NCBI GenBank assembly: GCA_938040325.1
Contig: CALHXW010000060.1
Location: 9,080 to 73,079, forward strand
Source of the DNA: an uncultured bacterium
Lineage (GTDB): Bacteria; Myxococcota_A; UBA9042; PHBI01
Reading direction: 5' to 3'
DNA length: 64,000 nucleotides
The position numbers and the translations under genes are program-made. Under the pieces are notes generated by a model that made no database searches, was not told the DNA's origin, and saw nothing but the letters and a program-made list of their open reading frames with translations. Below are positions 2,388 through 40,556 of this stretch, piece after piece (position 1 is the stretch's first letter; each line of letters begins with the position of its first letter).

Positions 2388-4325
2388 GTGCCGTTGTCGG
2401 AGCCCATAGTGAGGCGGATGATGGACGTTTTTGCGACTCGGTCCGAGGTTGAGCAGCCTTCCAGAGCACGGACGCGTTGGCTGCGGACGGTTGCCGCGGC
2501 CCTGAAAGGCGTCCTCGCTGCGTGCGGCGACTCTGCGCCAGGCATGACCGATGACGTGGCGGTGGATGCCGACACCGTGGCCGACACGTTTGCTGACGAC
2601 GCCGACGCGGCTGTCGATACTGCGGTCGCGCCTTTTGATAGCGCGAGCGACACCAGCACTGGGGTCGCGCCGCTGCCGTCCTGCATCGAGCTCGACCCGA
2701 GCGCTGCCGATCCTACCGAGGCGCTCTTCGCGCCAGACTGCGTGATGGACGTACGCATCAGCTTGGGCGTGAGCGACTGGTACGACCTGCGACACGAGAC
2801 GCGGAGCATCACGGACGTTATCGGCATCGATTGCGGTCAGGAGCCACCCGCGGACGTCTTCAACTGGTACCAAGGCGACGTGACCGTTGCGGGCGTCACG
2901 GTCGCTGGTGCGGGGGTTCGCAAGAAGGGCTTTCTTGGCTCGCTCGACAGCGACCGCCCCTCACTGAAGGTCCGCTTCGACAAGTTCATTGAGGGCCAGC
3001 GCCTCTCGGGTATGAAGCGGCTAACGCTCAACAACATGCGTCAGGATCCTGGCGTCGTGAACACCTGCCTGGCCTACGGGGTGATGCGTCGGTTTGGCGT
3101 GGTCACACCGCGCTGCAACTTTGCCCGGGTGTGGGTCAACGGCAACGACCTGGGCATCTATGCCCACGTGGAGAGCGTCAAGAAGCCCTTCATCGCGAGG
3201 CACTTCTCGAGCGACGAGGGCAACCTCTACGAAGCGACGCTGAGTGACTTCCGCGAGGGCTACACCGCCACGTGGGAGAAGAAGACCAACGAGGCGGAAG
3301 CCGACTGGAGCGACATCGAGGCCGTGACGGCGGCGCTGACGGTGTCCGATGACGGCCTGATGCCGACGCTTGAGCCACTCGTCGATCTCGACGCCTTCTA
3401 CACGTTCTGGGCTGCCGAGGTGATCGTTGGCCACTGGGACGGCTACGCGGGCAACATCAACAACACCTATGTCTACGCCGACCCGGCCGACGGTCGGTTT
3501 CAGTTCATCCCGTGGGGAGCCGACGCCGTGTTTGCGCGTCCCCCCGAGATCTTGGGCAACACGGAGCTTCCACCACCGTCGGTGATGGCCCGGGGGCTGC
3601 TCACCCATCGTCTCTACAACCACTTCGAGGGCCGCCCGGCCTACCTCGAGCGGCTGCTCATGCTCCTTGAGACGCACTGGGACACCGACGAGGTGCTCGG
3701 CGAGCTTGACCGAATGGCGGCGCTAGTTGTCGAGCACATCCCGCTCTCTGAGCGCCTCGAGTTCTATGAAGCCATTGAGGAGAAGCGGGCGTGGATCGCT
3801 GCGCGCGAGACGATTCTCTACGACCAAGTGGTCACCGGCGGCGTCGACTGGACCCTTGGCCTTGCCGACAACGGCTGCTGGCAGGACGCAGGAACGATCG
3901 CCGGGACATTCGACACCGTGTGGGGAACGGAAGGACGCGAGTGGCCGGCCGGAGGTCTCGGCTTTGTGGAGCTGACCATCAACGGCGAGCCCGTCACGTT
4001 TTCCAACGTCCAAGCCAACGCGCGCGAGGGCTTTAGTGGTGACACTGAGGGTGAAGCGATCATCGAGGTCAACGGCCTCACCGAAGGCGGCCAGTTCATC
4101 TTCGCAGCATTCATTGGCCCGCTCGAGGCCGTGCAGTCGAGCGGCTCAGCCCCTGTCGACTGGAAGTCCTTTCGTGGCTGGCTTGGCCGCTCCGAAGGAC
4201 TCTATCTCGACTTTGACCTGATCGGCCTGCTGGTCGACGGCTCGCTGACGTTCAACGAAGCCCAGACGTGGCAAGGCCAGGTCGTAGAGGGCAGCTTCGA
4301 GGCGCGCGTGCTGTCGGAGCCGTGA
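2388..4325 (+). CDS. CotH-kinase-family secreted lipoprotein
   Basis: A lipobox (…LKGVLAAC GD) is present. The central block GHWDGYAGNINNTYVYADPADGRFQFIPWGADAVFA matches the conserved CotH kinase core (…WD.Y..N.NNYYLY.D…F.FIPWD.D..F). The true start may be downstream of 2388 (an alternative start was not resolved). Confidence 0.6.
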   Translation: MPLSEPIVRRMMDVFATRSEVEQPSRARTRWLRTVAAALKGVLAACGDSAPGMTDDVAVDADTVADTFADDADAAVDTAVAPFDSASDTSTGVAPLPSCIELDPSAADPTEALFAPDCVMDVRISLGVSDWYDLRHETRSITDVIGIDCGQEPPADVFNWYQGDVTVAGVTVAGAGVRKKGFLGSLDSDRPSLKVRFDKFIEGQRLSGMKRLTLNNMRQDPGVVNTCLAYGVMRRFGVVTPRCNFARVWVNGNDLGIYAHVESVKKPFIARHFSSDEGNLYEATLSDFREGYTATWEKKTNEAEADWSDIEAVTAALTVSDDGLMPTLEPLVDLDAFYTFWAAEVIVGHWDGYAGNINNTYVYADPADGRFQFIPWGADAVFARPPEILGNTELPPPSVMARGLLTHRLYNHFEGRPAYLERLLMLLETHWDTDEVLGELDRMAALVVEHIPLSERLEFYEAIEEKRAWIAARETILYDQVVTGGVDWTLGLADNGCWQDAGTIAGTFDTVWGTEGREWPAGGLGFVELTINGEPVTFSNVQANAREGFSGDTEGEAIIEVNGLTEGGQFIFAAFIGPLEAVQSSGSAPVDWKSFRGWLGRSEGLYLDFDLIGLLVDGSLTFNEAQTWQGQVVEGSFEARVLSEP

Positions 4326-4820
4326 CGTTCCGGCCGCGCGGCGGTCCAAACGGGGGCGCGAATCGAGCTTCAGCGTCGCCGGAACACGCGGACTGAAAGC
4401 GCTGCGACGTGGCCCGCGGGGCTGACGGATCGAGGGGACGCCTGAACGCGGCTGGAGGCTGCCGATCGCGAGCGATGCAAACGTGAACCCATCGAGGCAC
4501 GGAACGCGGTGAGGGGTGCGGCACGTGCAGAAGGTTTCGGGCAGCAATTCCGCCCATGGAGTCGCTTTCCCGGACCCTGATGGTCCGCCCATCGCCACCC
4601 TCATGCCGGCCGACAGGCCTCGGCTGAGTTCGCGCGACCGCGCCCGCCAGTTGCCAGAATGTGAGTCGTGCCCGTTGTCTCCAACCAGCCGAACCTGCTA
4701 GAGTCTCAGCACTCTCGCAAAATTTGGTTGGGGAACTCGGTGCTGCGCGGCTGGTAGGCCTCGCGCAGCGCCTTCGATGGTCCGATGTCCAGCGTCGTCA
4801 AACGGTGCACTGGGGAACAC

Positions 4821-7800
4821 ATGTCATTCCGTCTCAAAACCGCGCTCGCTGGATCGCTCGGGTCCGCGCTTGTTCTCGTGTTTGCGCTGGCTGCAACGCC
4901 AGACGCCCACGCCGCGTGCGATGACCCGCCAACGCTGCTCTTCCAGCTCAAGGACGCACCGACGACGTGGACCTGCGGCACAAGCCAGAGCTTCAAGGTC
5001 AACTACTCGGTGAGTGCTGGCGAGCTCGCACCTGCGCAGATCCGGGTGACCTTGCCAGTCGGCATGTATTACCAGTCTGCATCGGGCAACTTGCCGCAGT
5101 TCAGCAACGGAAGCTGCACCGGCAACTGGACGACCACCGGCCAGGTCTGCACCTTCTCGACGAGCAGCCTTGACGGCTCGGCCGGCGCGGTGGCCGGTCA
5201 GTTTTCAGTCACCGCACGCGCCGACTGCAACTACTTCGACGAGGGGAACACAAACGTGACCATCCCGGGCGTGCTGGACGGCACGTACGAAGGGACAGAG
5301 GGCGAAGCGTGCGATGTCGATCCCGACGTGGCGTCGTCCGATGACACGGTCATCGTCAACAACGTCATCCAAAACACCTACTCGCTCATCACGTACTCTG
5401 GCTTTGAGAGCCGGTGGATCTCGAACGCCGATCCGCAATGCTACGAGATGCCAGATGGCAACACGTACCGAATCGCGGTGGTGCGCAGCTACTTCAACCG
5501 CACGGGAGGTAACGAGAACTGGGGCAATCCGTCGGCGACCTACGAGATGCCGACAATCCCAGGAGCTATCTGGCTCGGCCCGCAGAACAGTTCGACGGTG
5601 AACATCACGGCCCCGACAGGGCTGGATACGGGGGATCCACTGCCCGCATCCGTCACGTTGTCGGTCACCAGGTCCGAAGCCCAGTTCTCCTACCTTCGGT
5701 ACTACTACTTTTACTTCGCAGTGCCATGCGCTGGCGCCCCAGCTGAGACCGGGCTGACCACCAACGTGACGGTGACCGAGGGAGGTGTTGCCAACACCGA
5801 CGCCGTCAACGCCACCTGGAACTCGCCGAACTTCACGAACCCGGGGTGTCCGACAGACGGCAACCGCTACTGCAGCGGCTACTGCGATGACAACCCGACC
5901 GCGTCAGTCGGCACCTCGCACCAAAACGTCGTGTCCCCAAGCACCGTCAGCCTCGCCGCGTTCCACCACTACTCACAGACCCAAACGGGTTCGAGCTACT
6001 CGGACGAGCTCTACCACGTCCAAGTAGTGTCCAGCGAACTCAACGTGAACTACCTCCAGGCGCTTTGGATCGGCAGCAACGCCACCTGTGGCCCGACCTT
6101 TTACCGATGCAACATCCCAGACAAGGTGGACGAGCTGGTGACAAAGGCCGAGTTCCTTGCAAGCTACAAGGACTCCGCCAGCTGCACCGTGTTCTACAGC
6201 ACCTACTACCCGCCGGCGACCGAGACGAACACGCACCTCTTCGCGTACGGCTCCGAGCTCGACTGCGAGGGTACCGAGATCTTTCCAGTCCTGAACGCGT
6301 TCTGGAAGGGACAGTCGTTCCCCGACGGCTTCCAGGGATGGTCCATCAACACCAACCCGTACTCGCGTCTTTGGGTCAACTACAGCTCACCGGGCTGCAG
6401 CCAGGTTGACGATGCCCTCAACTTCAGTAGTGCATACACACGAACCCATTGCCCGGAGAGCACCGAGCTCTCCGGGGAAAACACCCTTCCCAAGACCGTG
6501 CAGGGCCAGAACTCGTTCTACTCGAACACCGGCGGGCTGCCAGCGACGGTCCAGTGTGGTGAGACTAAGGACGTCTGGTTCTACAACAACAACTACTACA
6601 GCTATAACCCGCGCGACGGCATCGTCGTGAACCCGCGTTGGGACCTCGACATCCCGAGCAACGCGAGCCTCTTCGGCTGCGAGTGGATCAACACCAACGG
6701 GACGGGCTGCAGCGCACCCACAGCGCTGAACGTGACAGAGGTCGTCAATGCCGACGGGACCAAGACCCTACGGGTTGAGCCGAAGTCGGAAGACGACGGC
6801 GACTATCACCTCGTCCGGCATGGCGGACTCTGCGGTGCTGCGCCTTGCGACCCGGTGGGCGCAGGCAACATCCGCTGCAAAGCGTTCTTCGACTGCGCCA
6901 ACCAGTACGAAAACAACGAGGCGGTGAACTTCTGCAACGAGGCCGACGCTGACAACCAAGCGTACGCGACGCCCCTGCGCCGGTGCCAGACCACGCGGGT
7001 CGATGTCCCGATTCAGAAGCGTGCGACCATTTCCCCGATCTGCTCGGATGAGGACACCCCGCTGGAGATTCCGGAAGGCACGCCAGGCGCCCGCTTCACC
7101 GCATCCAACAGCGGTGGCGCCGTGCTCAACCAGGTCATCATCGAAAACACCCTGCCACGGGTTGGAGACGGCTCGAACACCGAGATCGACTCGTACTACT
7201 ACGCCCACGTGATCAGTGGCGACCAGACCGGCAGCTGCACGGTCGAGTGCTACATCAACGACTGGGCAGCTTGCCCGACCGACGCCACCGCGTTCGACGT
7301 CACGAAAGTCCGCATGCTGTGCGACGAGCTCAATCCCTACGAGGCACAAACCCTCGATCTCTTCGTTCAGTTCACGGCGGCCGACGGCGGCACGTCGAAC
7401 GGCAAGGATGTGATTGCGACCGCTGTCTTGCTCGACGACAACCTCTTGCCCGCCGAGGTTGAAGCGATCACGCCGACGATCGTTGGCCGGTGCCCCGGCA
7501 TCTTCCAGGTCTGCGTCTTCTTCGACGAGGACGGCGACGGCGTGAAAGACGCCAACGAGACCTTCATGGCCAACTGGCCCTTCACCGTCACCGACCAGCT
7601 GGATGCCGGCAACAACTTCGAGGACATCGTCCCCGCCGGTGGCAACTACGAAGTCACCGTCGCCGCGGGTGACTACGACTTCGCGTACACCAACCCCCTC
7701 AACGAGAACGCCTACACGCTCGACACTTGGGAGATCACAGCCGACGTTCCGACGTCGTTCACCATCACGCCTGGGTTCGACACCAAGATCACCATTCCCG

Positions 7801-10800
7801 CGCGCTGCACCTGCAACGACGGCGAGCCGTGCACGGCCGATGAGTGCAGCTTCCTTGGCACCTGCTCGTTCCCGCCAACCCAGCCGGACAACCCCGATCC
7901 CGACCTCTGCGACGGCATCGACCAGGACTGCGACGGCCAGATCGACGAGGACCACGTCGACCAGAACACGACCTGTGGCACGGGCTCGAGCGAAGCCTGC
8001 ACGGCCTACGGCAACGCCCTGTGCATCAACGGCACGGTCGTCGACACCTGCGAAGAGCCCACCGGCAGCCCCGAGGTGTGCGACGGCGAGGACAACGACT
8101 GCGACGGCCAGATCGACATCTTCGACGCCAGCCTCGTCATCCCGAACTGCGAGAGCCAGCAGGGCGTGTGCAGCGGCTGCAAGAAACCTCGCAGCCTGTG
8201 CGTAGACGGCGACTGGCAAGACTGCACCGGCGCAACCTACGCAGGCTGCGCGTTCCCGCAGCAGTACCTGCCCGGCGATGCCGACTGCAACAACCTCGAC
8301 AACGACTGCGACGGCAGCACCGACGAGGGCTACCAGAGCCAGTCCACGTCGTGCGGCGTCGGCGCCTGTAGCGACACCGGTACCATCAGCTGCATCAACG
8401 GCAACGAGATCGACTCGTGCAACCCAGGCGGCCCGGGCATTGAGCTCTGCGACGGCGAGGACAACGACTGCGACGGCCTGGTCGATGCCCTCGACCCGGA
8501 CCTGGTGTTGCCGTCCTGCGAGGACCAAGACGGCGTCTGCCGCGGTGCAACCAAGCCCCCATCCTTGTGCACGAACGGCTCGTGGCAGAGCTGCACGGAC
8601 GCTGTCTACGAAGACCACAGCAACCTCTACGACAGCAGCAACGGTGGCGACATCTGCGACGGCTACGACAATGACTGTGACGGCGACCTCGACGAGGACT
8701 TCGTCGCGGAGCCAACCAACTGCGGGACGGGCGTCTGTGCCGGCACCGGCATGACGGTCTGCGTGCCCGATGTCTCCTGCGACAGCGACCCGTTCGCACC
8801 TGGCTGCCCCTGCGAGCCCTTTGACCCCGACCAAAACGGCACCGACCAGAACGGCACCGACCAGAACGGCACGTTCGACTTCCCGACGGCGCGTGGAAGC
8901 CAGTTCGGCGGTGAGTTCGGCGAGTGCGACCTGTGCGAGGTGGCGCCCAAGCACCCGCTCTGCGACCCGTGCTTCTTCATCCCGGACAATCCCAACTGCG
9001 GCGATCCGTGCGATATCGACCCTGGCAGTCCTGAGTGTTGCGAGGTGGATCTCGACCACCCAAGCTGCGACCCTTGTGAGCTAGATCCGGGGAGCCTCGA
9101 CTGCTGCGACGAGTTCCCCGACCACCCTGAGTGCGACCCGTGTGCGTTCGACCCCGAGCTCTGCGACCCGTGCTTCTTGACGGACTGCAGCGAGTGCTTC
9201 AACTCGGAGTTCGCCAATGAGGAGTGCTTCCTGTGCTGCGACTTCCCGGCCTTCGCCGGACCGTCGTTGCCGGCGTACAGCGCTCAGATCATCAACACGT
9301 GCGAGGTCGGAGAGCCGGACGGCAATGAGACCTGCGACGGCGAAGACAACGACTGCGATGGCCTGACCGACGCGGAAGATCCGGACCTCGTCATCGAAGA
9401 GTGCGAGGACCAAGACGGTGTCTGCGAGGGCGCCAACCACACCGCCAACCAGTGCATTGGCGGCGAGTGGTCGAGCTGCGGCTTCGCCAACTACATCGTC
9501 AACGACGTCAGCTACACGGGCGCACATCCCGAAGAGGGCGGACTCGACGCATGCGACGGCGTCGACAACGACTGTGACGGAGAGATCGACGAAGACTTCG
9601 AGGGCGAAGAGGTCACCTGCGGCGTGGGTGTGTGTGCTTCGACCGGCACCACGAGCTGCCAGGACGGCGAGATCGTCAACACCTGTGAGCCGGGCGACCC
9701 GTCCGCCGACGAGGTGTGCGACGGCGTCGACAACGACTGCGATGGCTTGGTCGATGGCGAAGACCCCGACCTCGTCCTCGAGGCGTGCGAGCTGCAAGAC
9801 GGTGTCTGCGACGGCAGCCGTCACACCCGTGAGCAGTGCGTCGACGGCGAGTGGAGCGAGTGCGTCTTCAGCAACTACATCACCAACAGCACCGACTACA
9901 ACGCGAACCAGGACCTCTGCGACGCGCTCGACAACGACTGCGACGGCACCGACGACGAGGACCACTCGGACCTCGAGACGAACTGCGGCGTTGGCAGCTG
10001 CGCAGCGACTGGTGTGCTCACCTGCGACGGTGGCGTGCCCACTGACAGCTGCGAGGCTGGCGAGCCTGAGTCCGATGAGGTCTGCGACGGCGAGGACAAC
10101 GACTGCGACGGGCTGACCGACGCGGCCGACCCGGACCTGGTCATCACCCAGTGCGACAACCAGGACGGCGTCTGCGACGGCTCGGTCCACACCCCCAACC
10201 AGTGCGTCAACGGCGAGTGGGCCGACTGCACCACCGTCAACTACCTCTCCAACAACCTCGCCTACGACCCCAACACCGATCTGTGTGACGGGCTCGACAA
10301 CGACTGCGACAGCGAGGACGACGAGGACTTCCCGTCGGTGGCCACAAGCTGCGGCACCGGCGCCTGCGCTGCGATGGGCGAGACGGCATGCGTCGACGGC
10401 GTTGCGGTCGACACGTGCGAGCCCGGAGACCCCGACGCGGAAGAGACGTGCGACGGCAACGACAACGACTGCGATGGGCTGCTCGACGGTGCTGACCCCG
10501 ACCTCGTGCTGGTTGAGTGTGCGCTCCAAGACGGTGTGTGCGAGGGCTCGATGCGCAACGCGACGCTCTGCGTTGGCGGCGAGTGGCAGGACTGCGGGAC
10601 GGTGGAGTACCTGGCCAACGACCTGAGCTACACCAGCGGCGTCGACGTCTGCGACGGCTCCGACAACGACTGCGACGGCGACGTCGACGAGAGCTTTGAG
10701 AGTCAGCCGACAAGCTGCGGCGTGGGCGCGTGCGCGGCCACCGGCGAGACCGTCTGTCAGGACGGCACCGAGATCGACACCTGCGTTGTTGGCGAGTCTT

Positions 10801-13800
10801 CCGGCGAGATCTGCGACGGCATCGACAATGACTGCGACGGCCTCGTCGACGGCGACGACCCGGACCTGCAGCTGGTGGAGTGTGAAGACCAAGACGGCGT
10901 GTGCAACGGCTCGATGAAGGTTGCAGCACTCTGCGTCGGCGGCGAGTGGGAAGCGTGCACCGCCACGCACTACAGCACGCACAGCGGCGACTATGACGCC
11001 AACACCGACCTCTGCGACGGGCTCGACAACGACTGCGACGAGACCAACGACGAGGACTTCGCGGCAGAAGCCACGGAGTGCGGCCAAGGTGCCTGCTTCG
11101 CCGAGGGCATGACCGCCTGCGTGCAGGGCGAGGTCATCGATACCTGCTCGCCAGGCGACGCCAGCTCCGACGAGGTGTGTGACGGCATCGACAACGACTG
11201 TGACGGCCTCGTCGACGCCCAAGACGACGACCTAGCACAGGTCCTCTGCGACGTGCAGGAGGGTGTGTGTGAAGGTGCCGAGCGTCCGACGTCGTTGTGC
11301 GTCAACGGCGAGTGGCAGGAGTGCGGTGCGGCCCAGTACGGCGGCAACTCCTTCGACTACGATCCCACGACCGACATCTGCGACGGCCTCGACAACGACT
11401 GCGACGGCGAGCTCGACGAGAGCTTCGTCGCCAGCGAGACCGACTGTGGCGTCGGTGCCTGCGCGGCCACCGGCGAGACGACCTGCGTTGACGGCGAGCT
11501 CATCGACACGTGCATGGCCGGCGAGCCGAGCGAGCTTGAGACCTGCGACGGCATCGACAACGACTGTGACGGCCTCGTCGACGCTCAGGACGACGACCTG
11601 CTGACACGCATGTGTGAGAACCAGCAGGGCGTCTGCGAGGGCTCGGAGAAGCCAGCCAGCCGCTGCGTCGACGGCGAGTGGGAGGCCTGCGAGGACTTCG
11701 ACTACGCTGGACACTCGACGGACTTCGAGCCTGACGGCGACCTGACCTGTGACGGCATCGACAACGACTGCAGCGGTGAGGCTGACGAGGACGTGCCCGA
11801 CGAGCCGAGCACCTGCGGCGTGGGTGCCTGCGAGGGCACGATGGGTGTGGTCACCTGCCAAGACGGCGAGCTGGTCGACACCTGTGACCCGGTCGCGAGC
11901 GCGGAGGCGGAGAGCTGCGACGCCATCGACAACGACTGCGACGGCGACGTCGATGAGGACTTCGAGACGCTGGGTCAGGGCTGCGATCCCAACCCCGAGG
12001 ACGACAACGTCTGTGAGTCGGGCGTCTACGTCTGTGCTGGCGACGGCTCGGGTGTCGTCTGCGAGCAGACCGAAGACATCGGTGTGGAGCGCTGCGACAA
12101 CATCGACAACGACTGTGACGGCGAGATCGATGAGGGCTGTGACGACGACGGCGACGACACGTGTGACGCCAACATGGTGTGCGTGACGGGCGTGGTCGTG
12201 GACGTCTGCCCCGGTGGCTGCGGTGACTGCAACGACGAGCCTGCCGACAACTACGAGGACGACGGGGCCAATGCCTACCCGGGCAACACCGAGATCTGCG
12301 ACAACGTCGACAACGACTGCGACGGTGAGATCGACGAGGGTTGCGATGATGACGGCGACGGCCACTGCGACGCGGCGATGGTCTGCTCCAGCGAGGTTGA
12401 GGCCATCGCACTGTGCGAGACCGGCTGCGACGACTGCGACGACGACAACGCGGACGTGAACCCCGGAGCGACCGAGACCTGCAACAGCATCGATGACAAC
12501 TGCGTCGACGGCATCGACGAGGGCTTCGGTGTCGGTGAGTCGTGCGTCGCCGGTGAAGGCGAGTGCCAGTCGATCGGCGTGCAAGTCTGCCAGGCCGATG
12601 GCGCGGGCGTGCTCTGCGACGCGGAGCTTGGCGACGAGAACGTCGAGGTTTGCGACGGCCGCGACAACGACTGCGACGGTGAAGTCGACGAAGGCTTCGA
12701 CCTCGGCGAAGCGTGCACGGTGGGTATCGGCGCATGCGAGAGCGAGCCAGGCGCGCTTGTCTGCCTGCCCGACGGCACGGCCGGCTGCGACGCAGCACCA
12801 CTGCTGCCCAAGCCCGAGACCTGCGATGCGATCGACAACGACTGCGACGGCGCCATCGACGAAGACCCAAGCGGCGAGAGCACGGTCTGTCTCGACGTGG
12901 AGACCACGGTGGACTGCCCGGCACCGGTGATCAGCGGCCACGACGTGACCATCACGTTCGCCGACGCGGTGACCGCGCAGACGAATGCCTTCGAGTGCCA
13001 GCTCGATGGCGGCCCGTGGCTGGCCTGCAACGGCGGGGTGGCGACGTACACCGACCTGCCCAACGGCCAGCACTCGTTCCTGGTGCGCGCGATCGGGCCC
13101 AACGGAGAGCCTGACCCCTCACCAGCTCTGTGCATCTGGGCCATCGACGACTCGGTGCCCGACACGGTCATCGACTTCTGCGCGGACAACCCGTCGCAGT
13201 CGAGCGACGCTACCTGTGGCTTCAGCACGCCGAGCGACGATGCAGAGCAGTTCTACTGCGTGCTCGACGCCGACACGACGCCGCCGCTGGCTGAGGACTT
13301 TGAGGCCTGTGACCCGGTCGAGACCTACGAGGGACTCGACGATGGTGAGCACACCCTGTGCGTGTACGTCGTCAACGAGGCCGGCGTCGCCGACCCCAGC
13401 CCAGCGTGTCACACGTGGGTCATCGACACGACGCTACCGGAGACGGCCATCGCGGACTGCCCGCCTGCGGCGACCTCGGCCAGCGACGTGACCGTGACGT
13501 TCTCGGATCCTGACGACAGCAGCGTCGTCAGCTTCGAGTGCCGCATCGACGACGGCGACTGGGCGCCTTGCCCGAGTGGCGAGGTGACCTATGGACCGCT
13601 CGAGGAGGGCGAGCACCGTCTCGAGGTGCGCGCGATCGACGCCAGCGGCAACGCCGACCCGATCCCCGCGTTCTGCGAGTGGGTGGTCGACGACTCCCCG
13701 CCCGACACGTTCATCCCGTTCCATCCGGAAGACCCCTCGCAGGTCGGCGACGCTGACTTCGGCTTCGCCTCCGACGAGAGCCCGGTGACGTACATGTGCG

Positions 13801-15821
13801 TGCTGGACCCGGAGACGCTGCCGCCAGCGCCCGAGGACTTCGCGCCTTGCGACGACACGGCGAGCTACGAGGGTCTCGAAGACGGACTGCACACGATGGT
13901 CGTCTACGCCATCGACGAGGCCGGCAACGCGGACCCGACCCCGGCGACGTACACCTGGGTCATCGACTCGACGGTCCCGGCGACGGAGATCACGAGCGGC
14001 CCGCCGACGCAACAGGGTCCCAACGAGCCTAACGGCTTCACGTTCCACGACCCCAACGACCCAGAAGCGGACTACTTCGAGTGCGCCGTTGACGGCGGTG
14101 AGTGGGTGCCGTGCCCTGACGGTGAGTTCTTCGCCGGCGAGCTGCCCTTGGGCCCTCATGAGCTGCTGGTGCGTACTTGCGACATCGACGGTGAGAAGCA
14201 GTGCGACCCGACCCCAGACATCTACGCCTGGGAGATTGTCGAGAGCCCCTGCCCGCTCGACGACACGGCACCGATGCTGGACTGTGCTGACGATGTGGTG
14301 CTCGAGTGCGCCGGCGGCAGCGCCGAGTTCGCGATCGATGGCATCCTGCCGAGTGCGGTCGACGCCTGTGCACCGGTCGACGTGACCTACACCGAGGTCA
14401 GCGCGACCTTCCCGATCGGGACGACCCCGCTGGTGTTCTCGGCAAGCGACGGCAACAACAACCTCGCAACCTGCGTGACGCGCGTCACCGTGGCGGACAC
14501 CCAGCCGCCCGCGATTGTGTGCCCGGAGGCCATCGAGGTGATCTCGCCCGATGACAGCTGCGGCGCGGCCATCGAGATGCCGGCGCCGCTAGCGTCCGAT
14601 GTCTGCGACGACGATGCCACGCTCTTGGTCTACAACGATGCGCCGCCTGTGTTCGGCGTCGGCGAGACGGTCGTGACGTACACGGTCATCGACGCCGCTA
14701 GCAACGTGACCTCGTGCGAGACACTGGTGACGGTCATCGACGACACGCCGCTGGTGCTCGAGTGCACGCCGACCGTTGAGGTCGTCGCCGACGCTGACGC
14801 ATGCGACTGGACCGGCGTGGTTCAGGCGCTCGCGTCCGACAACTGCGCGGTCGACGCCACGGTCATCGACGAAGAGGCGGAGTACCCGGTCGGCAACCAT
14901 CAGGTCGACTTCACGGCGATGGACGATGCCGGAAACTCCGACGCGTGCACGACGCTGCTGACGGTCATCGACGGCACACCGCCGGCAGTTGAGTGCGGCA
15001 CACTGAGCGGGACGACCGTGCCACAGACCGTCACGGCGACCGCGTCGGACGCATGCGGTGCGGAGCTCCAGCTCTTGGAGCTGTCCTGCACGGTCGTCGA
15101 CGCTGACGGCACGGAGACGGCGCTCGATGAGGCCGCCTGTCCGGTCACGGTCGACGGCGACACGATGACGATCGAAGGGTCGGTCGAAGGCGAGCTGCAC
15201 ATCAGCTACACCGCATCGGCGGTGGACCCGAGCGGCAACGTCGGCGATGCGCCCTGCGACTTTGTCTTTAGCTCCGACATCGATGCTGACGGCATCATCG
15301 ACGGCAGCGACAACTGCCCGATGACGCCGAACGCGGCGCAGGAGGACGGCGACGGCGATGGCGTGGGCGATGCCTGCGACGTGTGTCCAAGCGCCGCGGA
15401 CGCTGACCAGACCGACAGCGACGGTGACGGCACCGGCGACGCTTGCGACACGTGCGTGAACGAGGCCAACACCGAGCAGCGTGACGGCGACGGTGACGGC
15501 ATCGGCGACGTCTGCGACATCTGCCCGGCGGTCGCCGACGCAGACCAGCTCGACACGGACGGCGACGGCGTCGGCGATGCATGCCAGGACGAAGACGACG
15601 ACGGCATGATCGACACGGTCGACAACTGCCCGTTCATCGGCAACCCCGACCAGGGTGACTTCGACGGCGACGGACTGGGCAACGCCTGCGACCCGGTCGA
15701 CGACGGCGTGGTGGCCTTCGGTAGCGGCGGCTGCAGCGGCGGCAGCGCACCGGCTGGCCTGCTGTGGCTCTTGGCGGCAGCGGCGGCCCTCGGCCTGCGC
15801 CGACGGCGGTCCCAAGTCTGA
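4821..15821 (+). CDS. giant secreted mosaic adhesin-like protein (signal peptide; MopE-type CDGxDNDCDG repeat modules; HYR domains; thrombospondin type-3 repeats; MYXO-CTERM)
   Basis: A single ORF of 3666 aa starts at the ATG at 4821 (MSFRLKTALAGSLGSALVLVFALAATPDAHA = Sec signal; GGGGA 5 nt upstream). It has about 26 copies of C-D-G-x-D-N-D-C-D-G-x-x-D-E, then 4 roughly 115-aa beta-sandwich-like repeats and HYR-like repeats. Classic TSP3 repeats follow (D.DGDG.GDACD.CP…NxxQxDxDGDG). The C-terminus is …GCSGGSAPAGLLWLLAAAAALGLRRRR (MYXO-CTERM pattern). Confidence 0.85.
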   Translation: MSFRLKTALAGSLGSALVLVFALAATPDAHAACDDPPTLLFQLKDAPTTWTCGTSQSFKVNYSVSAGELAPAQIRVTLPVGMYYQSASGNLPQFSNGSCTGNWTTTGQVCTFSTSSLDGSAGAVAGQFSVTARADCNYFDEGNTNVTIPGVLDGTYEGTEGEACDVDPDVASSDDTVIVNNVIQNTYSLITYSGFESRWISNADPQCYEMPDGNTYRIAVVRSYFNRTGGNENWGNPSATYEMPTIPGAIWLGPQNSSTVNITAPTGLDTGDPLPASVTLSVTRSEAQFSYLRYYYFYFAVPCAGAPAETGLTTNVTVTEGGVANTDAVNATWNSPNFTNPGCPTDGNRYCSGYCDDNPTASVGTSHQNVVSPSTVSLAAFHHYSQTQTGSSYSDELYHVQVVSSELNVNYLQALWIGSNATCGPTFYRCNIPDKVDELVTKAEFLASYKDSASCTVFYSTYYPPATETNTHLFAYGSELDCEGTEIFPVLNAFWKGQSFPDGFQGWSINTNPYSRLWVNYSSPGCSQVDDALNFSSAYTRTHCPESTELSGENTLPKTVQGQNSFYSNTGGLPATVQCGETKDVWFYNNNYYSYNPRDGIVVNPRWDLDIPSNASLFGCEWINTNGTGCSAPTALNVTEVVNADGTKTLRVEPKSEDDGDYHLVRHGGLCGAAPCDPVGAGNIRCKAFFDCANQYENNEAVNFCNEADADNQAYATPLRRCQTTRVDVPIQKRATISPICSDEDTPLEIPEGTPGARFTASNSGGAVLNQVIIENTLPRVGDGSNTEIDSYYYAHVISGDQTGSCTVECYINDWAACPTDATAFDVTKVRMLCDELNPYEAQTLDLFVQFTAADGGTSNGKDVIATAVLLDDNLLPAEVEAITPTIVGRCPGIFQVCVFFDEDGDGVKDANETFMANWPFTVTDQLDAGNNFEDIVPAGGNYEVTVAAGDYDFAYTNPLNENAYTLDTWEITADVPTSFTITPGFDTKITIPARCTCNDGEPCTADECSFLGTCSFPPTQPDNPDPDLCDGIDQDCDGQIDEDHVDQNTTCGTGSSEACTAYGNALCINGTVVDTCEEPTGSPEVCDGEDNDCDGQIDIFDASLVIPNCESQQGVCSGCKKPRSLCVDGDWQDCTGATYAGCAFPQQYLPGDADCNNLDNDCDGSTDEGYQSQSTSCGVGACSDTGTISCINGNEIDSCNPGGPGIELCDGEDNDCDGLVDALDPDLVLPSCEDQDGVCRGATKPPSLCTNGSWQSCTDAVYEDHSNLYDSSNGGDICDGYDNDCDGDLDEDFVAEPTNCGTGVCAGTGMTVCVPDVSCDSDPFAPGCPCEPFDPDQNGTDQNGTDQNGTFDFPTARGSQFGGEFGECDLCEVAPKHPLCDPCFFIPDNPNCGDPCDIDPGSPECCEVDLDHPSCDPCELDPGSLDCCDEFPDHPECDPCAFDPELCDPCFLTDCSECFNSEFANEECFLCCDFPAFAGPSLPAYSAQIINTCEVGEPDGNETCDGEDNDCDGLTDAEDPDLVIEECEDQDGVCEGANHTANQCIGGEWSSCGFANYIVNDVSYTGAHPEEGGLDACDGVDNDCDGEIDEDFEGEEVTCGVGVCASTGTTSCQDGEIVNTCEPGDPSADEVCDGVDNDCDGLVDGEDPDLVLEACELQDGVCDGSRHTREQCVDGEWSECVFSNYITNSTDYNANQDLCDALDNDCDGTDDEDHSDLETNCGVGSCAATGVLTCDGGVPTDSCEAGEPESDEVCDGEDNDCDGLTDAADPDLVITQCDNQDGVCDGSVHTPNQCVNGEWADCTTVNYLSNNLAYDPNTDLCDGLDNDCDSEDDEDFPSVATSCGTGACAAMGETACVDGVAVDTCEPGDPDAEETCDGNDNDCDGLLDGADPDLVLVECALQDGVCEGSMRNATLCVGGEWQDCGTVEYLANDLSYTSGVDVCDGSDNDCDGDVDESFESQPTSCGVGACAATGETVCQDGTEIDTCVVGESSGEICDGIDNDCDGLVDGDDPDLQLVECEDQDGVCNGSMKVAALCVGGEWEACTATHYSTHSGDYDANTDLCDGLDNDCDETNDEDFAAEATECGQGACFAEGMTACVQGEVIDTCSPGDASSDEVCDGIDNDCDGLVDAQDDDLAQVLCDVQEGVCEGAERPTSLCVNGEWQECGAAQYGGNSFDYDPTTDICDGLDNDCDGELDESFVASETDCGVGACAATGETTCVDGELIDTCMAGEPSELETCDGIDNDCDGLVDAQDDDLLTRMCENQQGVCEGSEKPASRCVDGEWEACEDFDYAGHSTDFEPDGDLTCDGIDNDCSGEADEDVPDEPSTCGVGACEGTMGVVTCQDGELVDTCDPVASAEAESCDAIDNDCDGDVDEDFETLGQGCDPNPEDDNVCESGVYVCAGDGSGVVCEQTEDIGVERCDNIDNDCDGEIDEGCDDDGDDTCDANMVCVTGVVVDVCPGGCGDCNDEPADNYEDDGANAYPGNTEICDNVDNDCDGEIDEGCDDDGDGHCDAAMVCSSEVEAIALCETGCDDCDDDNADVNPGATETCNSIDDNCVDGIDEGFGVGESCVAGEGECQSIGVQVCQADGAGVLCDAELGDENVEVCDGRDNDCDGEVDEGFDLGEACTVGIGACESEPGALVCLPDGTAGCDAAPLLPKPETCDAIDNDCDGAIDEDPSGESTVCLDVETTVDCPAPVISGHDVTITFADAVTAQTNAFECQLDGGPWLACNGGVATYTDLPNGQHSFLVRAIGPNGEPDPSPALCIWAIDDSVPDTVIDFCADNPSQSSDATCGFSTPSDDAEQFYCVLDADTTPPLAEDFEACDPVETYEGLDDGEHTLCVYVVNEAGVADPSPACHTWVIDTTLPETAIADCPPAATSASDVTVTFSDPDDSSVVSFECRIDDGDWAPCPSGEVTYGPLEEGEHRLEVRAIDASGNADPIPAFCEWVVDDSPPDTFIPFHPEDPSQVGDADFGFASDESPVTYMCVLDPETLPPAPEDFAPCDDTASYEGLEDGLHTMVVYAIDEAGNADPTPATYTWVIDSTVPATEITSGPPTQQGPNEPNGFTFHDPNDPEADYFECAVDGGEWVPCPDGEFFAGELPLGPHELLVRTCDIDGEKQCDPTPDIYAWEIVESPCPLDDTAPMLDCADDVVLECAGGSAEFAIDGILPSAVDACAPVDVTYTEVSATFPIGTTPLVFSASDGNNNLATCVTRVTVADTQPPAIVCPEAIEVISPDDSCGAAIEMPAPLASDVCDDDATLLVYNDAPPVFGVGETVVTYTVIDAASNVTSCETLVTVIDDTPLVLECTPTVEVVADADACDWTGVVQALASDNCAVDATVIDEEAEYPVGNHQVDFTAMDDAGNSDACTTLLTVIDGTPPAVECGTLSGTTVPQTVTATASDACGAELQLLELSCTVVDADGTETALDEAACPVTVDGDTMTIEGSVEGELHISYTASAVDPSGNVGDAPCDFVFSSDIDADGIIDGSDNCPMTPNAAQEDGDGDGVGDACDVCPSAADADQTDSDGDGTGDACDTCVNEANTEQRDGDGDGIGDVCDICPAVADADQLDTDGDGVGDACQDEDDDGMIDTVDNCPFIGNPDQGDFDGDGLGNACDPVDDGVVAFGSGGCSGGSAPAGLLWLLAAAAALGLRRRRSQV
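7905..12875 (+). repeat. array of about 13 bipartite modules, each with two CDGxDNDCDG putative metal-binding (MopE-type) motifs and a Cys-rich insert
   Basis: The repeated protein pattern is CDGxDNDCDGxxDE…CGxGxC…CDGxDNDCDGLxDxxDPDLVxxxCExQDGVC…GEWxxC…Y. Copies are diverged at the DNA level. Limits are approximate. Confidence 0.6.
14245..15705 (+). other. HYR (hyalin-repeat) domains (about 14245-15200) followed by thrombospondin type-3 calcium-binding repeats (about 15275-15705) within the giant ORF
   Basis: HYR pattern D..PP.I.CP…SDNC.V…G.H.V.FTA.D.AGN…C...V.V.D appears 4-5 times. TSP3 pattern D.D.DG..D..DNCP...N..Q.D.DGDG.GDACD appears about 4 times. Confidence 0.6.
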
Positions 15822-15845: not shown

Positions 15846-15885
15846 GAACCCGCTGACGCAACCGTGTCAGCGGGTTCTTTGTGTT
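15846..15885 (+). terminator. rho-independent terminator after the giant adhesin gene
   Basis: A perfect 12-bp stem GAACCCGCTGAC / GTCAGCGGGTTC with an approximately 8-nt loop is followed by TTTGTGTT. It lies 25 nt after the stop at 15821. Confidence 0.55.
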
Positions 15886-15951
15886 CGAGCACCATCGTTG
15901 CATCCGAGTCGCGTTTGAAGACAATGACCCTCGACGACAATGGAGCAACGC

Positions 15952-20602: not shown

Positions 20603-23521
20603 CTACTGGAGCAGGTTGTTGATGGCGCCAAACGCCTGCGACTGCGAGCCGCTTGTGTGGACGATCGTGCCCGTCTCATCGAGCACAATATGCTCATCTT
20701 TGGTGCCGGTGCCGGTGTGGCCGGGGAACACGCCGTTTGCGTCAAAGAGCACAGGCATCGTCAGCCCGAAGTTGTCGCGGACAGCCGCGCAATAAGCCGC
20801 ATCGGGTAGGCTCCCGAAGTTTCCGGTGTTGGTGATCACAAGGTACATCTCGAAGCTGGGGTCGAGCGCTAGGAAGTCTGCATAATCATCGGACGCCGAA
20901 CTGGCGTGCCCTTGGCAAGACGGTCACCACCCGGCGTACGAGAACATATACGACGCCTTCTTCTGACAGAGCTCATGGATGGTGTAGGGCGTTCCGTCGC
21001 AGTCGGTCAGCGTCAGGTCTGCCAAGCGGTCGCCCACGCCGGTCCCGTAAGGCGCCGCGGGCGGACAGACCATCGGAGGCGGTCCGCAGGTGCCAGCAGC
21101 CATGTCGCAGACGTCTCCACCAGCACACACCCCACACGTCGAGCCGCAGCCGTCGGGACCGCAGTCCTTGCCGGCGCAGTCGGGCACGCACTCGCACTGA
21201 CCCGCACCACTGCAGCTCTCGTTGACTGCACAGCTCCCGCAGCTCCCGCCGCAGCCGTCGCCGCCACAGTCTTTGCCAGCACAGTCAGGCACGCAGGCGC
21301 ACTGCCCGCTGCCATCACACGTCTCGCCAGCGCCACAGCCTGGCCCGCAGCTCCCCCCACAGCTGTCGGGCCCGCAGCTCTTGCCGGCACAATCAGCGAC
21401 ACACTCACACTGGCCGCCTGCGCCACAGGCCGAGCCAGCGGCACACGCGCCGCACGTGCCACCACAGCCGTCGCTTCCACACATCTTGCCCACACAGTCG
21501 GGGACACAGGCACACTGACCGCCACCATCACAGGCCTCGCCAGCAGCGCACATGCCGCAGCTTCCGCCGCAGCCATCGCCGCCGCAGTCCTTGCCTGCGC
21601 ACGCGGCCACACACTCACACTGACCCGCGCCGCTGCAGACGTCCTGCGGCCCACTGCAGCCAGGCGGACAGCTCCCGCCGCAGCCGTCGCCGCCGCAGAC
21701 CTTGCCGGCACAGTCAGCAACGCACTCGCACTGACCGGCGCCGCTGCAGACCTCTTGGGCACCCGAGCAGCCAGGCCCGCACGTCCCACCGCAGCCATCG
21801 CCGCCGCAGACCTTGCCGGCACAGTCGGCCACGCACTCGCACTGGCCTCCAGTGCTGCAGACCTCTTGAGCCCCGCTGCAGCCAGGACCGCAGCTCCCGC
21901 CGCAACCATTGCTCCCGCAGACCTTGCCGACACAGTCCGCCACGCACTCGCACACGCCAGCGGCGCTGCAGACTTCCTGCGTACCGCTGCAGCCTGCGCC
22001 GCAGGTCCCTCCACAGCCGTCGCTGCCACAGACCTTGCCGGCACAGTCGGGTGCGCAGACGCAGCTCCCGGTGTCGCATGCGGTCCCTGGCTGACACGAC
22101 CCGCAGCTCCCGCCGCAGCCGTCGTCACCACACGCCTTGCCGACGCAGTCGGGAGCACACTCGCAGACGCCAGCGCCACTGCATACCTCGCCCGCTGGAC
22201 ACGTCGGTCCGCACGTCCCGCCGCAGCCGTCCGGCCCGCAGCTCTTGCCGCTGCAGTCGGGCGTGCACGTCGAGACACAGGCCCCAGCGCTCGTGCAGAC
22301 CATCCCAGCGCTGCAGCCCGCGCCGCAGGTTCCGCCACAACCATCGTCACCGCAGACCTTACCGACACAGTCCGGCACGCACTCGCACACGCCCGCAACG
22401 CTGCACTGGTCTCCAGCGGCGCAGGTCCCGCAGCTCCCGCCGCAACCATCCGTCCCGCACGCCTTGCCGTCGCAGCTTGCGCAGCACGGGACGTTGCACA
22501 TGCCGGTCGCGTCGCACAGGCTCGGGTCATCACCGAAGCAGCCGGTACAGCCGCCACAGCTTCCGCCGCAGCCGTCGTCACCACAGAGCTTGCCGGCGCA
22601 GTCCGGAGCGCACGCACAGCTCCCGCCGGTACAGGTGTCAGGCGCCGTGCAGCTGCCGCACACCCCGCCACATCCATCGTCGCCGCAGACCTTGCCAGCG
22701 CAGTCCGGCACACAAGCGCACGCCCCGCCCACGCACTGCTCACCGCCCTCGCAGCTTCCGCAGGTACCGCCACAACCGTCGTCTCCGCAGGTCGCCGTCA
22801 GGCAGTCCGGAGCACACGCACAGCTCCCGGCATCGCAGACGCTCCCGCTCGAGCACGTGCCGCAAACCCCGCCGCAGCCGTCCGGCCCACACGCTTTCCC
22901 GTCACAGTCCGGCACGCACGCGCAGGCTCCGCCAACGCACACGTCCCCACCCGCGCAGCTGCCACAGCTCCCGCCGCAGCCATCATCGCCGCACGAGGCG
23001 ACGCTACAATCGGGCGCGCACGTGCACGCTCCGTCACTGCAGCCAAAGCCCGCACCACAAGCGCCGCAGCTCCCGCCGCAGCCGTCGTCACCGCAGTCGT
23101 TGCCAAGGCAGTCCGGACAGCAGACCGACTCGCAGGCACCGCCGACGCAGAGTCCTGGGTCAGGACCAAAGCACCCGTCGCACTCCCCGCAGAGCCCGCC
23201 ACACCCATCATCACCGCAGGTCTTGCCCTCGCAGTCTGGCACACACACGGGCGGCGTTGTATCGGCGCTTGTGTCCGCGGTCGCGTCTTCGACGGTATCG
23301 TCGAGCACATCGACCGGCTCGACAGCCGTGTCCACAAGCTCCGCCGTCGTGTCAGCAACCGCCGTGTCCACCGGCTCCGCCGTATCGACAGCAACATCGC
23401 CCGAGCCGGTATCCAGCACGGTATCAACGCTACCGGCGGTGTCTTCAGCGGAATCGGTCGGCGCCTCGTCTCCGCAAGCCGCCGTCGCAATCATCACCGC
23501 AATCAGCACGAGTTTTCTCAT
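20603..23521 (-). CDS. lipoprotein with about 25 tandem 8-Cys repeat modules and a C-terminal TlpA/redoxin-like domain interrupted by an in-frame TGA at the first position of the CxxC motif (candidate selenocysteine, UxxC)
   Basis: The N-terminus is MRKLVLIAVMIATAAC-GD (lipobox), followed by an acidic D/T/A-rich linker. The repeat is C.C.PDC.GK.CG.DGCGG.CG.C..G..C..G.C, about 25 copies. Reading 20924-23521 then gives …DLTLTDCDGTPYTIHELCQKKASYMFSYAGW-TGA-PSCQGHASS… It continues in the same frame through ORF 20603-20848 (…MYLVITNTGNF…PVLFDANG…IVLDETGTIVH…). Together this reconstitutes a complete thioredoxin-fold redoxin domain. Confidence 0.55.
20891..20926 (-). other. in-frame UGA (20924-20926) plus downstream mRNA hairpin (about 20891-20911): candidate bacterial SECIS
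   Basis: On the mRNA the sequence reads UGA-CCGUCUUGCCAA-GGGCACGCC-AGUUC-GGCGUCC. A 5-6 bp GC stem with an A-U pair, a C-C mismatch and a G-C pair below carries an apical loop containing G-U. It begins 12 nt after the UGA, the spacing expected for bacterial SECIS elements. Confidence 0.35.
21060..23250 (-). repeat. about 25 tandem copies of a roughly 93-96-nt unit encoding an 8-cysteine module (C.C.PDC.GK.CG.DGCGG.CG.C..G..C..G.C)
   Basis: The repeat is visible in the protein, and as long P/Q/S-rich shadow ORFs on the opposite strand (20906-23590, 22051-23820). Limits are approximate. Confidence 0.8.
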
Positions 23522-23603
23522 ACCGTGAGACTACCTCGAACGAACGGTGGGAGCGAGCGCCTTCTGGCTCAGCGGCCCAAAGCCGCATGACCGATGTAAG
23601 CGC

Positions 23604-27300: not shown

Positions 27301-27413
27301 TGGCCGCCGCCGCCGGCTCGCCCTGAGTCTCACGTGCGGATTTGGCGATCCCCACGAAACCATCCAGCTGGTATGTTGGGGGCGGTAGGCTGCCTACTCG
27401 CCCGAGAGGAAAC

Positions 27414-40071: not shown

Positions 40072-40556
40072 CAGCTTGCGATGGGCCTCGTCGCGTCGGT
40101 GCCTTATCTCCGACATGAGCAGTCTTCAACGTGGGCGCCCGGTTCCGTGCACGCCGCGCGACACGTCTTCTCTGCGCCTCGAGCTGGCAGGTCAGAGTCG
40201 ACCACGAGACGCGAATGCCGCTCGCTTCTGGGGCAAAGCACGGAGACCCGACGTTGCTACAGGTCAGCCTCGACGCCGAACGTCCCGTCGCGAACGCAGA
40301 CGCACAGCCACGGTCGCGAACGTCATCAAAAGCAAGTGCTTACGATCGATCTTTTTGCCGCTGGCGTGGGCAAGCAGCACGAGCGACACCCTTTCATGCG
40401 TCTTACAACGGCCATTCGATGCGTGGTCTCGTCGACCCAGCCGTTGACTGCTTCGTCGCCCTATTCCGGATTGCCAAAGACGGCTCCTGAGCCGTTTTGC
40501 GGACTTCGCGTGATGTGCTACCACCGAGGCCGTCTCAACCAGCACGAGGGAATACC

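Follow-up and report, generated by a model that had tools for sequence, protein, structure and literature searches.

It is mainly through MYXO-CTERM proteins that myxobacteria equip their cell surface for predation and social life, and to our knowledge a role is known for only a few of them, such as TraA, MepA, and MtsC. TraA (MXAN_6895), which serves Myxococcus xanthus as the receptor for outer-membrane exchange, combines a signal peptide, an N-terminal domain, a Cys-rich stalk, and a MYXO-CTERM tail; its Cys-rich tandem repeats have been proposed as a rigid stalk presenting the N-terminal binding domain (PMC3325183), and the MYXO-CTERM sorting route has been shown experimentally for this protein (PMC11980579). 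Here we describe an 11-kb gene in a 64,000-nt stretch of contig CALHXW010000060.1 from an uncultured bacterium (the whole stretch is hereafter called the window), which encodes a protein of 3666 amino acids (aa) with the same layout as TraA, likewise in a Myxococcota host. Judging by its architecture, the product is probably a giant, acidic, TraA-like surface fibre that would be lipid-anchored at its C-terminus, carry an outward-facing head on a stalk stiffened by Ca2+ and disulfides, and act as an adhesin.

The protein is not itself a member of the TraA family: PA14 and TIGR04201 were absent from Pfam and NCBIfam scans of the whole sequence and of its pieces. No traB-like gene lies adjacent. 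Unlike that of TraA, the stalk here is built of MopE/teneurin-type calcium units together with Ig-like, HYR, and thrombospondin type-3 (TSP3) modules, and it is far longer. The cell–cell cohesion protein MtsC is similar in that its TSP3 repeats are followed directly by MYXO-CTERM; the MtsC model NF047638 gave a partial match of 132.2 bits in the TSP3 region only, far below its equivalog cutoff of 350, so that the protein is not an MtsC equivalog. This model has 428 positions, and the rest of the 3666-aa protein is without a match to MtsC. Animal thrombospondin/COMP and hyalin share the DxDxDGxGDxCDxCP...NxxQxD loops and the HYR domains, but the C-terminal lectin-like domain, epidermal growth factor (EGF) domains, and coiled coil of thrombospondin are missing here, and the repeats adjoin a bacterial lipid anchor. 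An initial annotation had seen in the gene the grammar of a metazoan extracellular matrix; the resemblance stands, whereas a metazoan origin is not implied, HYR, TSP3, and Ig-like modules being widespread in bacterial surface proteins.

The protein belongs to an already recognised class, the MYXO-CTERM surface proteins composed of MopE-motif, HYR, Ig-like, and TSP3 modules, and NCBI has already named its relatives 'MopE-related protein' or 'HYR domain-containing protein'. No paper on this protein family was found in the literature on MtsC and on myxobacterial HYR/TSP3 proteins. New are a family of heads not characterised before, a bipartite module defined at 122 aa together with its range of copy numbers, and an explicit calcium-ligand argument. 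The interest of the gene is modest: it is a real, correctly placed feature and an unusually large member of its class, an extreme and cleanly modular MYXO-CTERM example with a variable stalk, a reused anchor cassette, and a fast-evolving head, and beyond size and modularity it is an ordinary repeat adhesin with no pointer to a new mechanism.

Architecture and proposed sorting of the 3666-aa protein

The gene is intact, with a single terminal stop and no interruption, and the secretion that the initial annotation claimed for its product agrees with an N-terminal Sec signal peptide. This peptide is apparent from the sequence itself, which shows a hydrophobic core behind a basic n-region and then an AHA-A cleavage motif, and it has equivalents at the N-termini of relatives. 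The composition is strongly acidic, with 13.6% Asp, 7.1% Glu, 7.2% Cys (264 residues), and only 2% Lys + Arg, so that the net charge is about −686. The assignments of MopE-type, HYR, and TSP3 domains and of a MYXO-CTERM tail were all borne out by hidden Markov models, at 196.8, 72.6, 78.8, and 22.2 bits, respectively, the last being marginal and reached on the tail alone. The 985-aa N-terminal head had been overlooked.

The stalk is dominated by units matching PF11617 (Cu-binding_MopE), which on the whole protein scored 196.8 bits against a gathering cutoff of 27 and in overlapping segment scans covered 4 + 8 + 11 = 23 stretches. The initial annotation had estimated about 26 CDGxDNDCDG motifs in about 13 bipartite modules; a regular expression finds 25 CxxxDxDC motifs, arranged as a half unit in front, nine complete B+A modules of 122 aa (2 + 7), and six divergent singles, that is, nine modules and seven single units. 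The B unit of ~67 aa follows the pattern CDGxDNDCDGLVDxxDPDL...QxGVCxG...GxW...C...Y and the A unit of ~55 aa the pattern CDGxDNDCDGxxDExF...CGxGxC...G...C, giving each module 12 conserved Cys (six per unit) and two CDGxDNDCDG calcium-ligand motifs. Alignment of the nine modules leaves 37 invariant columns, with pairwise identities of 48–60% in protein and 61–69% in DNA. Given this divergence and the lack of any exact repeat of ≥40 nt, the array is old and not an assembly artefact.

Two tandem modules were modelled by AlphaFold2 (AF2) with a predicted local distance difference test (pLDDT) score of 91.9, from an alignment that consists of the repeats themselves. Foldseek, which is weak on small disulfide-rich domains, found no structural neighbour of this module model in the PDB at E ≤ 0.001, and a PDB sequence search with one 261-aa stalk piece returned nothing. 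A 172-aa insert with abundant Cys, Pro, and Asp interrupts the array; it has 24 Cys, five xxCDPC motifs, and a perfect (TDQNG)x3 encoded by a 15-nt x3 tandem repeat at 8827–8872; the part of the array holding this insert has no counterpart in the collinear relative P0003 described below.

Between these units and the C-terminal tail lies a cassette of Ig-like, HYR, and TSP3 modules. Self-BLASTP of the C-terminal region showed no repeats at E ≤ 1e-3, and the Ig-like and HYR repeats were revealed by manual alignment. The Ig-like region is of the Big_13/Y_Y_Y/OmpL47-barrel type (Big_13 37.4 bits, Y_Y_Y 35.8 bits; NF047446, with its cutoff of 40, 54.3 bits), and the four beta-sandwich repeats of ~115 aa recorded earlier are replaced by five repeats of 83–96 aa. 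PF02494 (HYR) scored 72.6 bits against a gathering cutoff of 21.7 in three stretches when the protein was scanned in pieces, and HYR was also found on the whole protein. The earlier count of four to five HYR domains holds for three canonical copies; the fourth is degenerate and does not score as a separate HYR stretch in the Pfam scan, and four to five full domains are not present. PF02412 (TSP_3) reached 78.8 bits (gathering cutoff 25) in four stretches, with regular-expression matches at aa 3509, 3532, and 3555, and at the DNA level this region contains a 69-nt tandem repeat of 3.5 copies (15345–15584).

The extreme C-terminus is tripartite, with GSGGC-SGGSAPAG, a hydrophobic uncharged segment LLWLLAAAAALGL, and RRRRSQV before the stop. 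A Gly-rich signature with an invariant Cys, an uncharged hydrophobic helix, and an Arg cluster are the features by which such tails have been defined (PMC11980579; Haft preprint). TIGR03901 (cutoff 20) reached 22.2 bits when only the 45 C-terminal residues were scanned, 20.9 bits with 67 residues, and 19.0 bits with 197; it was the top-scoring CTERM model in every tail scan and gave 21.5–28.7 bits on the tails of relatives. The protein has both a tripartite tail of the MYXO-CTERM type and an N-terminal signal peptide, in a Myxococcota host with a second tagged protein in the window.

[quoted passage not shown] Outward from the membrane, the predicted order of the fibre would be a TSP3 calcium 'wire', three to four HYR domains, five Ig-like domains, 25 six-Cys units, and the head. 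Calcium and disulfides could make the stalk a stiff spacer of, very roughly, ~100 nm, and the reach of the stalk would be set by its number of bipartite modules.

Putative calcium ligands of the stalk, and the distal head

The metal of the MopE-type units is most likely calcium rather than copper, since the ligands known from the C-rich domain of teneurin-4 are retained in the units, where a copper site is absent. When the B+A module profile was compared with PDB sequences at E ≤ 10, the sole match was this domain (7PLP, E = 0.11), with CGDSKDNDGDGLVDCMDPDC opposite CDGxDNDCDGLVDxxDPDL and ~35 of the 122 module positions covered. The teneurin-4 domain binds three Ca2+ via D840, D843, N844, D845, D847, D851, D854, and D856, in two TSP3-like sites and one LDL-receptor-A-like site, and contains six Cys in three disulfides (PMC9058538). 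The six-Cys pattern and the CxDxxDNDxDGLVDxxDPD motif are common to both proteins, and seven of the eight acidic ligands (D840–D856), as well as N844, have conserved equivalents in the B unit, E835 being without a clear one. Ligand-equivalent positions D1, D4, N5, D6, D8, and D12 are conserved in 23–25 of the 25 units. Of the nine B-type units, eight retain both residues of the third-site pair D15/D17; the exception is unit 2, with Ser at position 17. Unlike teneurin-4, where the domain occurs as a single copy, the present protein concatenates 25 units, and Foldseek did not retrieve teneurin-4. If each unit held about two to three Ca2+, the molecule together with its TSP3 loops might bind on the order of 60–70 Ca2+.

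That the gene encodes a MopE-like copper-scavenging surface protein is suggested by the strong match to a Pfam family named Cu-binding_MopE and by the name 'MopE-related protein' that NCBI gave to a relative, yet we regard it as highly improbable. MopE and CorA of methanotrophs share the short Pfam motif and are surface-associated or secreted, and their copper site consists of two His and a Trp-derived kynurenine in a beta-sheet fold, separate from a structural Ca2+ site (PMC3423442, PMC3912023). Neither this copper site nor the beta-sheet fold has a counterpart here, no PDB chain other than teneurin-4 was matched at E ≤ 10, and the seven tandem modules (861 aa) contain only 8 His and 7 Trp, neither at a motif position. 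The conserved residues are Asp/Asn oxygen ligands, typical for Ca2+. The metal-binding character claimed for these motifs can thus be kept insofar as metal ligands are conserved, and it should be read as calcium, with no copper site. That MopE and teneurin motifs resemble each other was noted in print as early as 2011 (PMC3278476). In Myxococcota, the widespread 'MopE putative metal-binding motif' could accordingly be readable as a teneurin/TSP3-type calcium site instead of a copper site, and such a reading would alter the interpretation of hundreds of 'MopE-related' annotations.

Neither Pfam and NCBIfam nor the sequences of the PDB hold a match to the head (aa 31–1015). When 1.84 billion representative proteins were searched exhaustively by HMMER, the head gave 37 matches, 18 of them at E < 1e-10, and the full-length relatives align over ~950 aa at their own N-termini. 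All named relatives are proteins from metagenome-assembled genomes (MAGs) of Myxococcota, Myxococcales, or 'Deltaproteobacteria', one of them annotated 'MopE-related protein' by NCBI, and a scan of the genome collection with the head found no relative. The head family thus appears to be small and confined to Myxococcota. With 17 family members as input, AF2 gave an all-beta model (pLDDT 71.6, predicted template-modelling score 0.63), confident at aa 40–180 and 520–1000 and weaker at 180–520. Its C-terminal part comprises DUF11-like (aa ~745–860) and SdrD-B-like (aa ~865–1000) segments before a CxCxDxxxCxxDxC junction; among the 17 head-family members, SdrD_B was matched in six, DUF11 in one, and the Dicty_CTDC Cys motif in six, the position of this motif in the 3666-aa protein being the head–stalk junction. 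The least conserved part of the head is its middle, aa ~150–600.

Foldseek neighbours of the head included SdrD, UafA, BcpA pilin, integrin alpha legs, and macroglobulin domains (E ~1e-10, with template-modelling (TM) scores of only 0.1–0.2). The closest structural analogues are the Gram-positive MSCRAMMs (microbial surface components recognizing adhesive matrix molecules) SdrD and UafA (4JDZ, 3IRP), in which a distal string of beta-sandwiches is likewise carried on a repeat stalk; SdrD_B, matched in head-family members, is a Ca2+-binding domain. Unlike the present protein, with its identity of 10–13% to them and its MYXO-CTERM tail, they are anchored by LPXTG and sortase. N-glycosylation sequons were also considered for the head and rejected: 17 NxS/T sequons against 12.5 ± 3.1 expected is not significant, and D/E-x-N-x-S/T occurs only once. 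The head is the likeliest functional end of the protein and would do the binding, be it to kin cells, prey, or a substrate, the adhesin call resting on architecture.

Relatives, modular evolution, and competing readings

A collinear relative is P0003 (2392 aa, bin label Myxococcota_PHBI01), whose identity to the 3666-aa protein is 52% in the divergent MopE units, 50% in the Ig-like region, 45% in HYR, 51–60% in TSP3, and 26% in the head. It contains one B+A module against nine here, and the counts in six family proteins are 9, at least 5 (a partial protein), 3, 3, 1, and 1; module number, which the initial annotation had proposed to compare in orthologues, thus varies among relatives from one to nine. 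P0003 and P0010 are encoded in the same MAG, which thus holds at least two head paralogues, so that the head family is paralogous within genomes. The Ig-like/HYR/TSP3/MYXO-CTERM-like cassette recurs behind unrelated N-termini in P0046, P0049, P0054, P0059, and P0060 (42–45% identity, 80–89% coverage), all with tails that pass TIGR03901 or the older TIGR03382, which agrees with the mosaic nature first proposed for the gene. Taken together, the architecture appears modular: the anchor cassette can be reused, the spacer differs in length, and the head at the distal end diverges fast.

Two further observations concern the same modules. In the head family, P0009 (2118 aa, from a Logan assembly) ends in an OmpA peptidoglycan-binding domain without MYXO-CTERM, apparently an alternative anchoring for the same head. 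This layout recalls the TraA/TraB and MXAN_5598 arrangements (PMC11980579). The Ig-like cassette repeat (~90 aa) is shared at 37–40% identity with proteins annotated as adventurous gliding motility protein AgmC (P0048, P0058, P0067; Archangium) and is also common to many non-myxobacterial 'large repetitive proteins'.

Several points weigh against an anchored adhesive fibre. TIGR03901 is marginal, dropping to 19.0 bits (cutoff 20) on the last 197 aa and missing from the whole-protein scan, and its curators state that the model needs review. No myxosortase or T2SS gene was found among the open reading frames (ORFs) scanned, which were a part of those in the 64-kb window. The AF2 alignments are shallow (17 rows for the head, 15 for the module), and an alignment made of the repeats themselves, as for the module, can inflate confidence. 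The low TM-scores of the head speak for a generic beta-sandwich string and not for a specific adhesin fold, and neither a lectin, a protease, or other recognisable binding site nor an enzyme-like domain was recognised in it. The teneurin-4 match is weak, and calcium is argued from the conservation of ligands.

The extreme acidity and the estimated 60–70 Ca2+ sites could also suit a component shed into the extracellular matrix or biofilm, a calcium-binding scaffold that would cross-link polymers or sequester Ca2+, and the window encodes three further secreted repeat proteins, Cys-rich or of EGF type, which suggest a rich extracellular proteome. This is nevertheless unlikely, since the sorting tail is kept in relatives, which argues for anchoring, and the combination of a conserved anchor-side cassette with a fast-evolving distal head has the polarity of a displayed receptor, unexpected for filler. 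Somewhat less likely still is a receptor for homotypic kin recognition in the manner of TraA, with a variable head that would bind identical heads on neighbouring cells and govern social interactions. The match to the TraA layout in signal peptide, N-terminal domain, Cys-rich stalk, and MYXO-CTERM, a head divergence about twice that of the cassette, the poorly conserved head middle, and the two or more head-bearing paralogues in one MAG would fit such a receptor, but the PA14 domain and TIGR04201 repeat were not detected in the Pfam/NCBIfam scans, a TraB-like OmpA partner gene is not adjacent, and low conservation may merely mean weak constraint. A broader proposal, no more probable to us than the shed scaffold, is that the head family consists of paralogous, fast-evolving receptors of kin or prey specificity, borne on a stalk made rigid by calcium and adjusted in length as copies of the 122-aa module are gained and lost; if true, there would be a second recognition system, independent of TraA, with a built-in 'molecular ruler' and at least two paralogous receptors per genome.

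An S-layer-like coat protein, as the initial annotation had also suggested, would be large, acidic, secreted, and C-terminally tagged like this one, and archaeal S-layer glycoproteins have an analogous C-terminal lipid anchor. The idea found no support and seems very improbable to us: the repeats are beads on a string without a lattice-forming domain, the gene stands alone, and a small family of varied lengths with several members per genome fits poorly to a single abundant coat. That the gene is a relic without function, or a product of faulty assembly, is scarcely credible. Although the contig comes from a MAG and long repeats are prone to mis-assembly, the 11-kb frame is open with one stop, the repeats are only 61–69% identical in DNA (no exact repeat of ≥40 nt), the structural Cys and Asp positions are all conserved across units, and the gene is collinear with P0003. 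Both this artefact reading and that of a copper protein stand in contradiction to the data.

Feature coordinates, neighbouring genes, and host

Positions refer to the whole 64,000-nt stretch, and residues of the protein convert as nt = 4821 + 3 x (aa − 1). The forward frame is open from 4785 to 15821, its sole stop at the end. An alternative in-frame ATG lies at 4785; the ATG at 4821 is preceded by the Shine-Dalgarno-like GGGGAA and yields exactly 3666 aa, and an identical protein is on record (P0001, from one 73,940-bp NCBI/ENA contig). The longest exact repeat in the gene is shorter than 40 nt. One terminator-like hairpin was found downstream of the gene, against 0.1 expected in shuffles, and its G+C-rich stem and T-run 25 nt past the stop suggest that the giant gene terminates its own transcript. 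A sigma-70 promoter scan found no site upstream.

Table 1. Features of the giant gene and its product in the window
Feature	Positions	Strand	Basis
Complete coding sequence, 3666 codons and stop	4821–15821	+	ORF list, translation, identical protein on record
Sec-type signal peptide (aa 1–30), MSFRLKTALAGSLGSALVLVFALAATPDAHA, with predicted cleavage before A	4821–4910	+	Read directly from sequence
Head, all-beta, ~7–8 predicted beta-sandwich domains (aa 31–1015)	4911–7865	+	AF2 model, relatives
Distal stalk part 1: one A-type MopE unit, then two 122-aa B+A modules (aa 1016–1327)	7866–8801	+	Motif map, module HMM (hidden Markov model), PF11617 in 4 stretches
172-aa insert splitting the module array (aa 1328–1499)	8802–9317	+	Without family match
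Distal stalk part 2: seven tandem 122-aa B+A modules (aa 1500–2360)	9318–11900	+	Alignment, hmmsearch 161–177 bits each, AF2
Six divergent single MopE-type units (aa 2361–2699); anchor-proximal cassette begins	11901–12917	+	PF11617 82.7 bits, 6 stretches
Five Ig-like repeats, 83–96 aa, alternating a/b subtypes (aa 2700–3151)	12918–14273	+	Alignment, 15 invariant columns
Three canonical HYR domains (aa 3152–3388)	14274–14984	+	PF02494, alignment
Degenerate fourth HYR/Ig-like domain (aa 3389–3485)	14985–15275	+	Weak alignment to the three HYRs, 18% identity
TSP3 repeats, seven Asp-rich loops (aa 3486–3630)	15276–15710	+	PF02412, regular expression
MYXO-CTERM sorting signal (aa 3631–3666)	15711–15818	+	TIGR03901, tripartite tail
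Intrinsic-terminator-like hairpin, 14-bp stem with 9 G-C pairs, then TTTGTGTT	15846–15887	+	25 nt past the stop

Directly upstream of the giant gene lies a gene for a CotH-family kinase (2388–4325, + strand; 134 bits) with a lipoprotein-like N-terminus (GVLAAC). The CotH family comprises kinases acting on secreted or spore-coat proteins, so that the two genes could conceivably be linked in function. Their adjacency is not kept at the P0003, P0010, and P0007 loci, which share no gene neighbours with the window at all.

Several other genes of the window encode secreted repeat proteins. A second giant protein of 2933 aa (40497–49298, + strand) has a clear MYXO-CTERM tail (26.6 bits), DUF11 and DUF4215 matches, ~12 Cys-rich repeats of ~45 aa (CV.C..D..C..G..C), and long Asp-rich TSP3-like stretches, and shows no significant homology to the 3666-aa protein. 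A secreted protein of 871 aa (27342–29957, + strand) carries ~15 EGF or calcium-binding EGF repeats and no C-terminal sorting tail; with hEGF at 230 bits, EGF_CA at 165 bits, and Teneurin EGF at 181 bits, this is a striking eukaryote-like array in a bacterium. On the opposite strand, 20924–23521 encodes 865 aa with a lipoprotein-type signal (IATAAC) and ~20 tandem Cys-rich repeats of ~33 aa (C.CVPDC.GK.CG.DGCGGSCG.C) without a Pfam match. The longer + strand ORF at 20906–23590 is its Ala/Arg-rich shadow, which accounts for the strong GC skew of this region.

As for the host, the ABC-F ATPase encoded next to the giant gene has named closest relatives exclusively in Myxococcota (Polyangiaceae, Kofleriaceae, Minicystis, Corallococcus), and its best non-self identity of only 54–55% suggests a poorly sampled lineage. 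A molybdopterin oxidoreductase with a twin-arginine translocation signal (58057–60717, + strand) has its closest matches (63–74%) in MAGs of Verrucomicrobiales, Limisphaerales, and Planctomycetota; it was either horizontally acquired or is a poor taxonomic marker, and as a marker it was set aside as misleading against the consistent Myxococcota matches of the ABC-F neighbour. The sole tRNA of the window, tRNA-Ser(CGA) at 32468–32550 on the − strand, overlaps the 5' end of the ORF at 32390–34129 (+ strand), which, if it is a gene, must therefore start further downstream.

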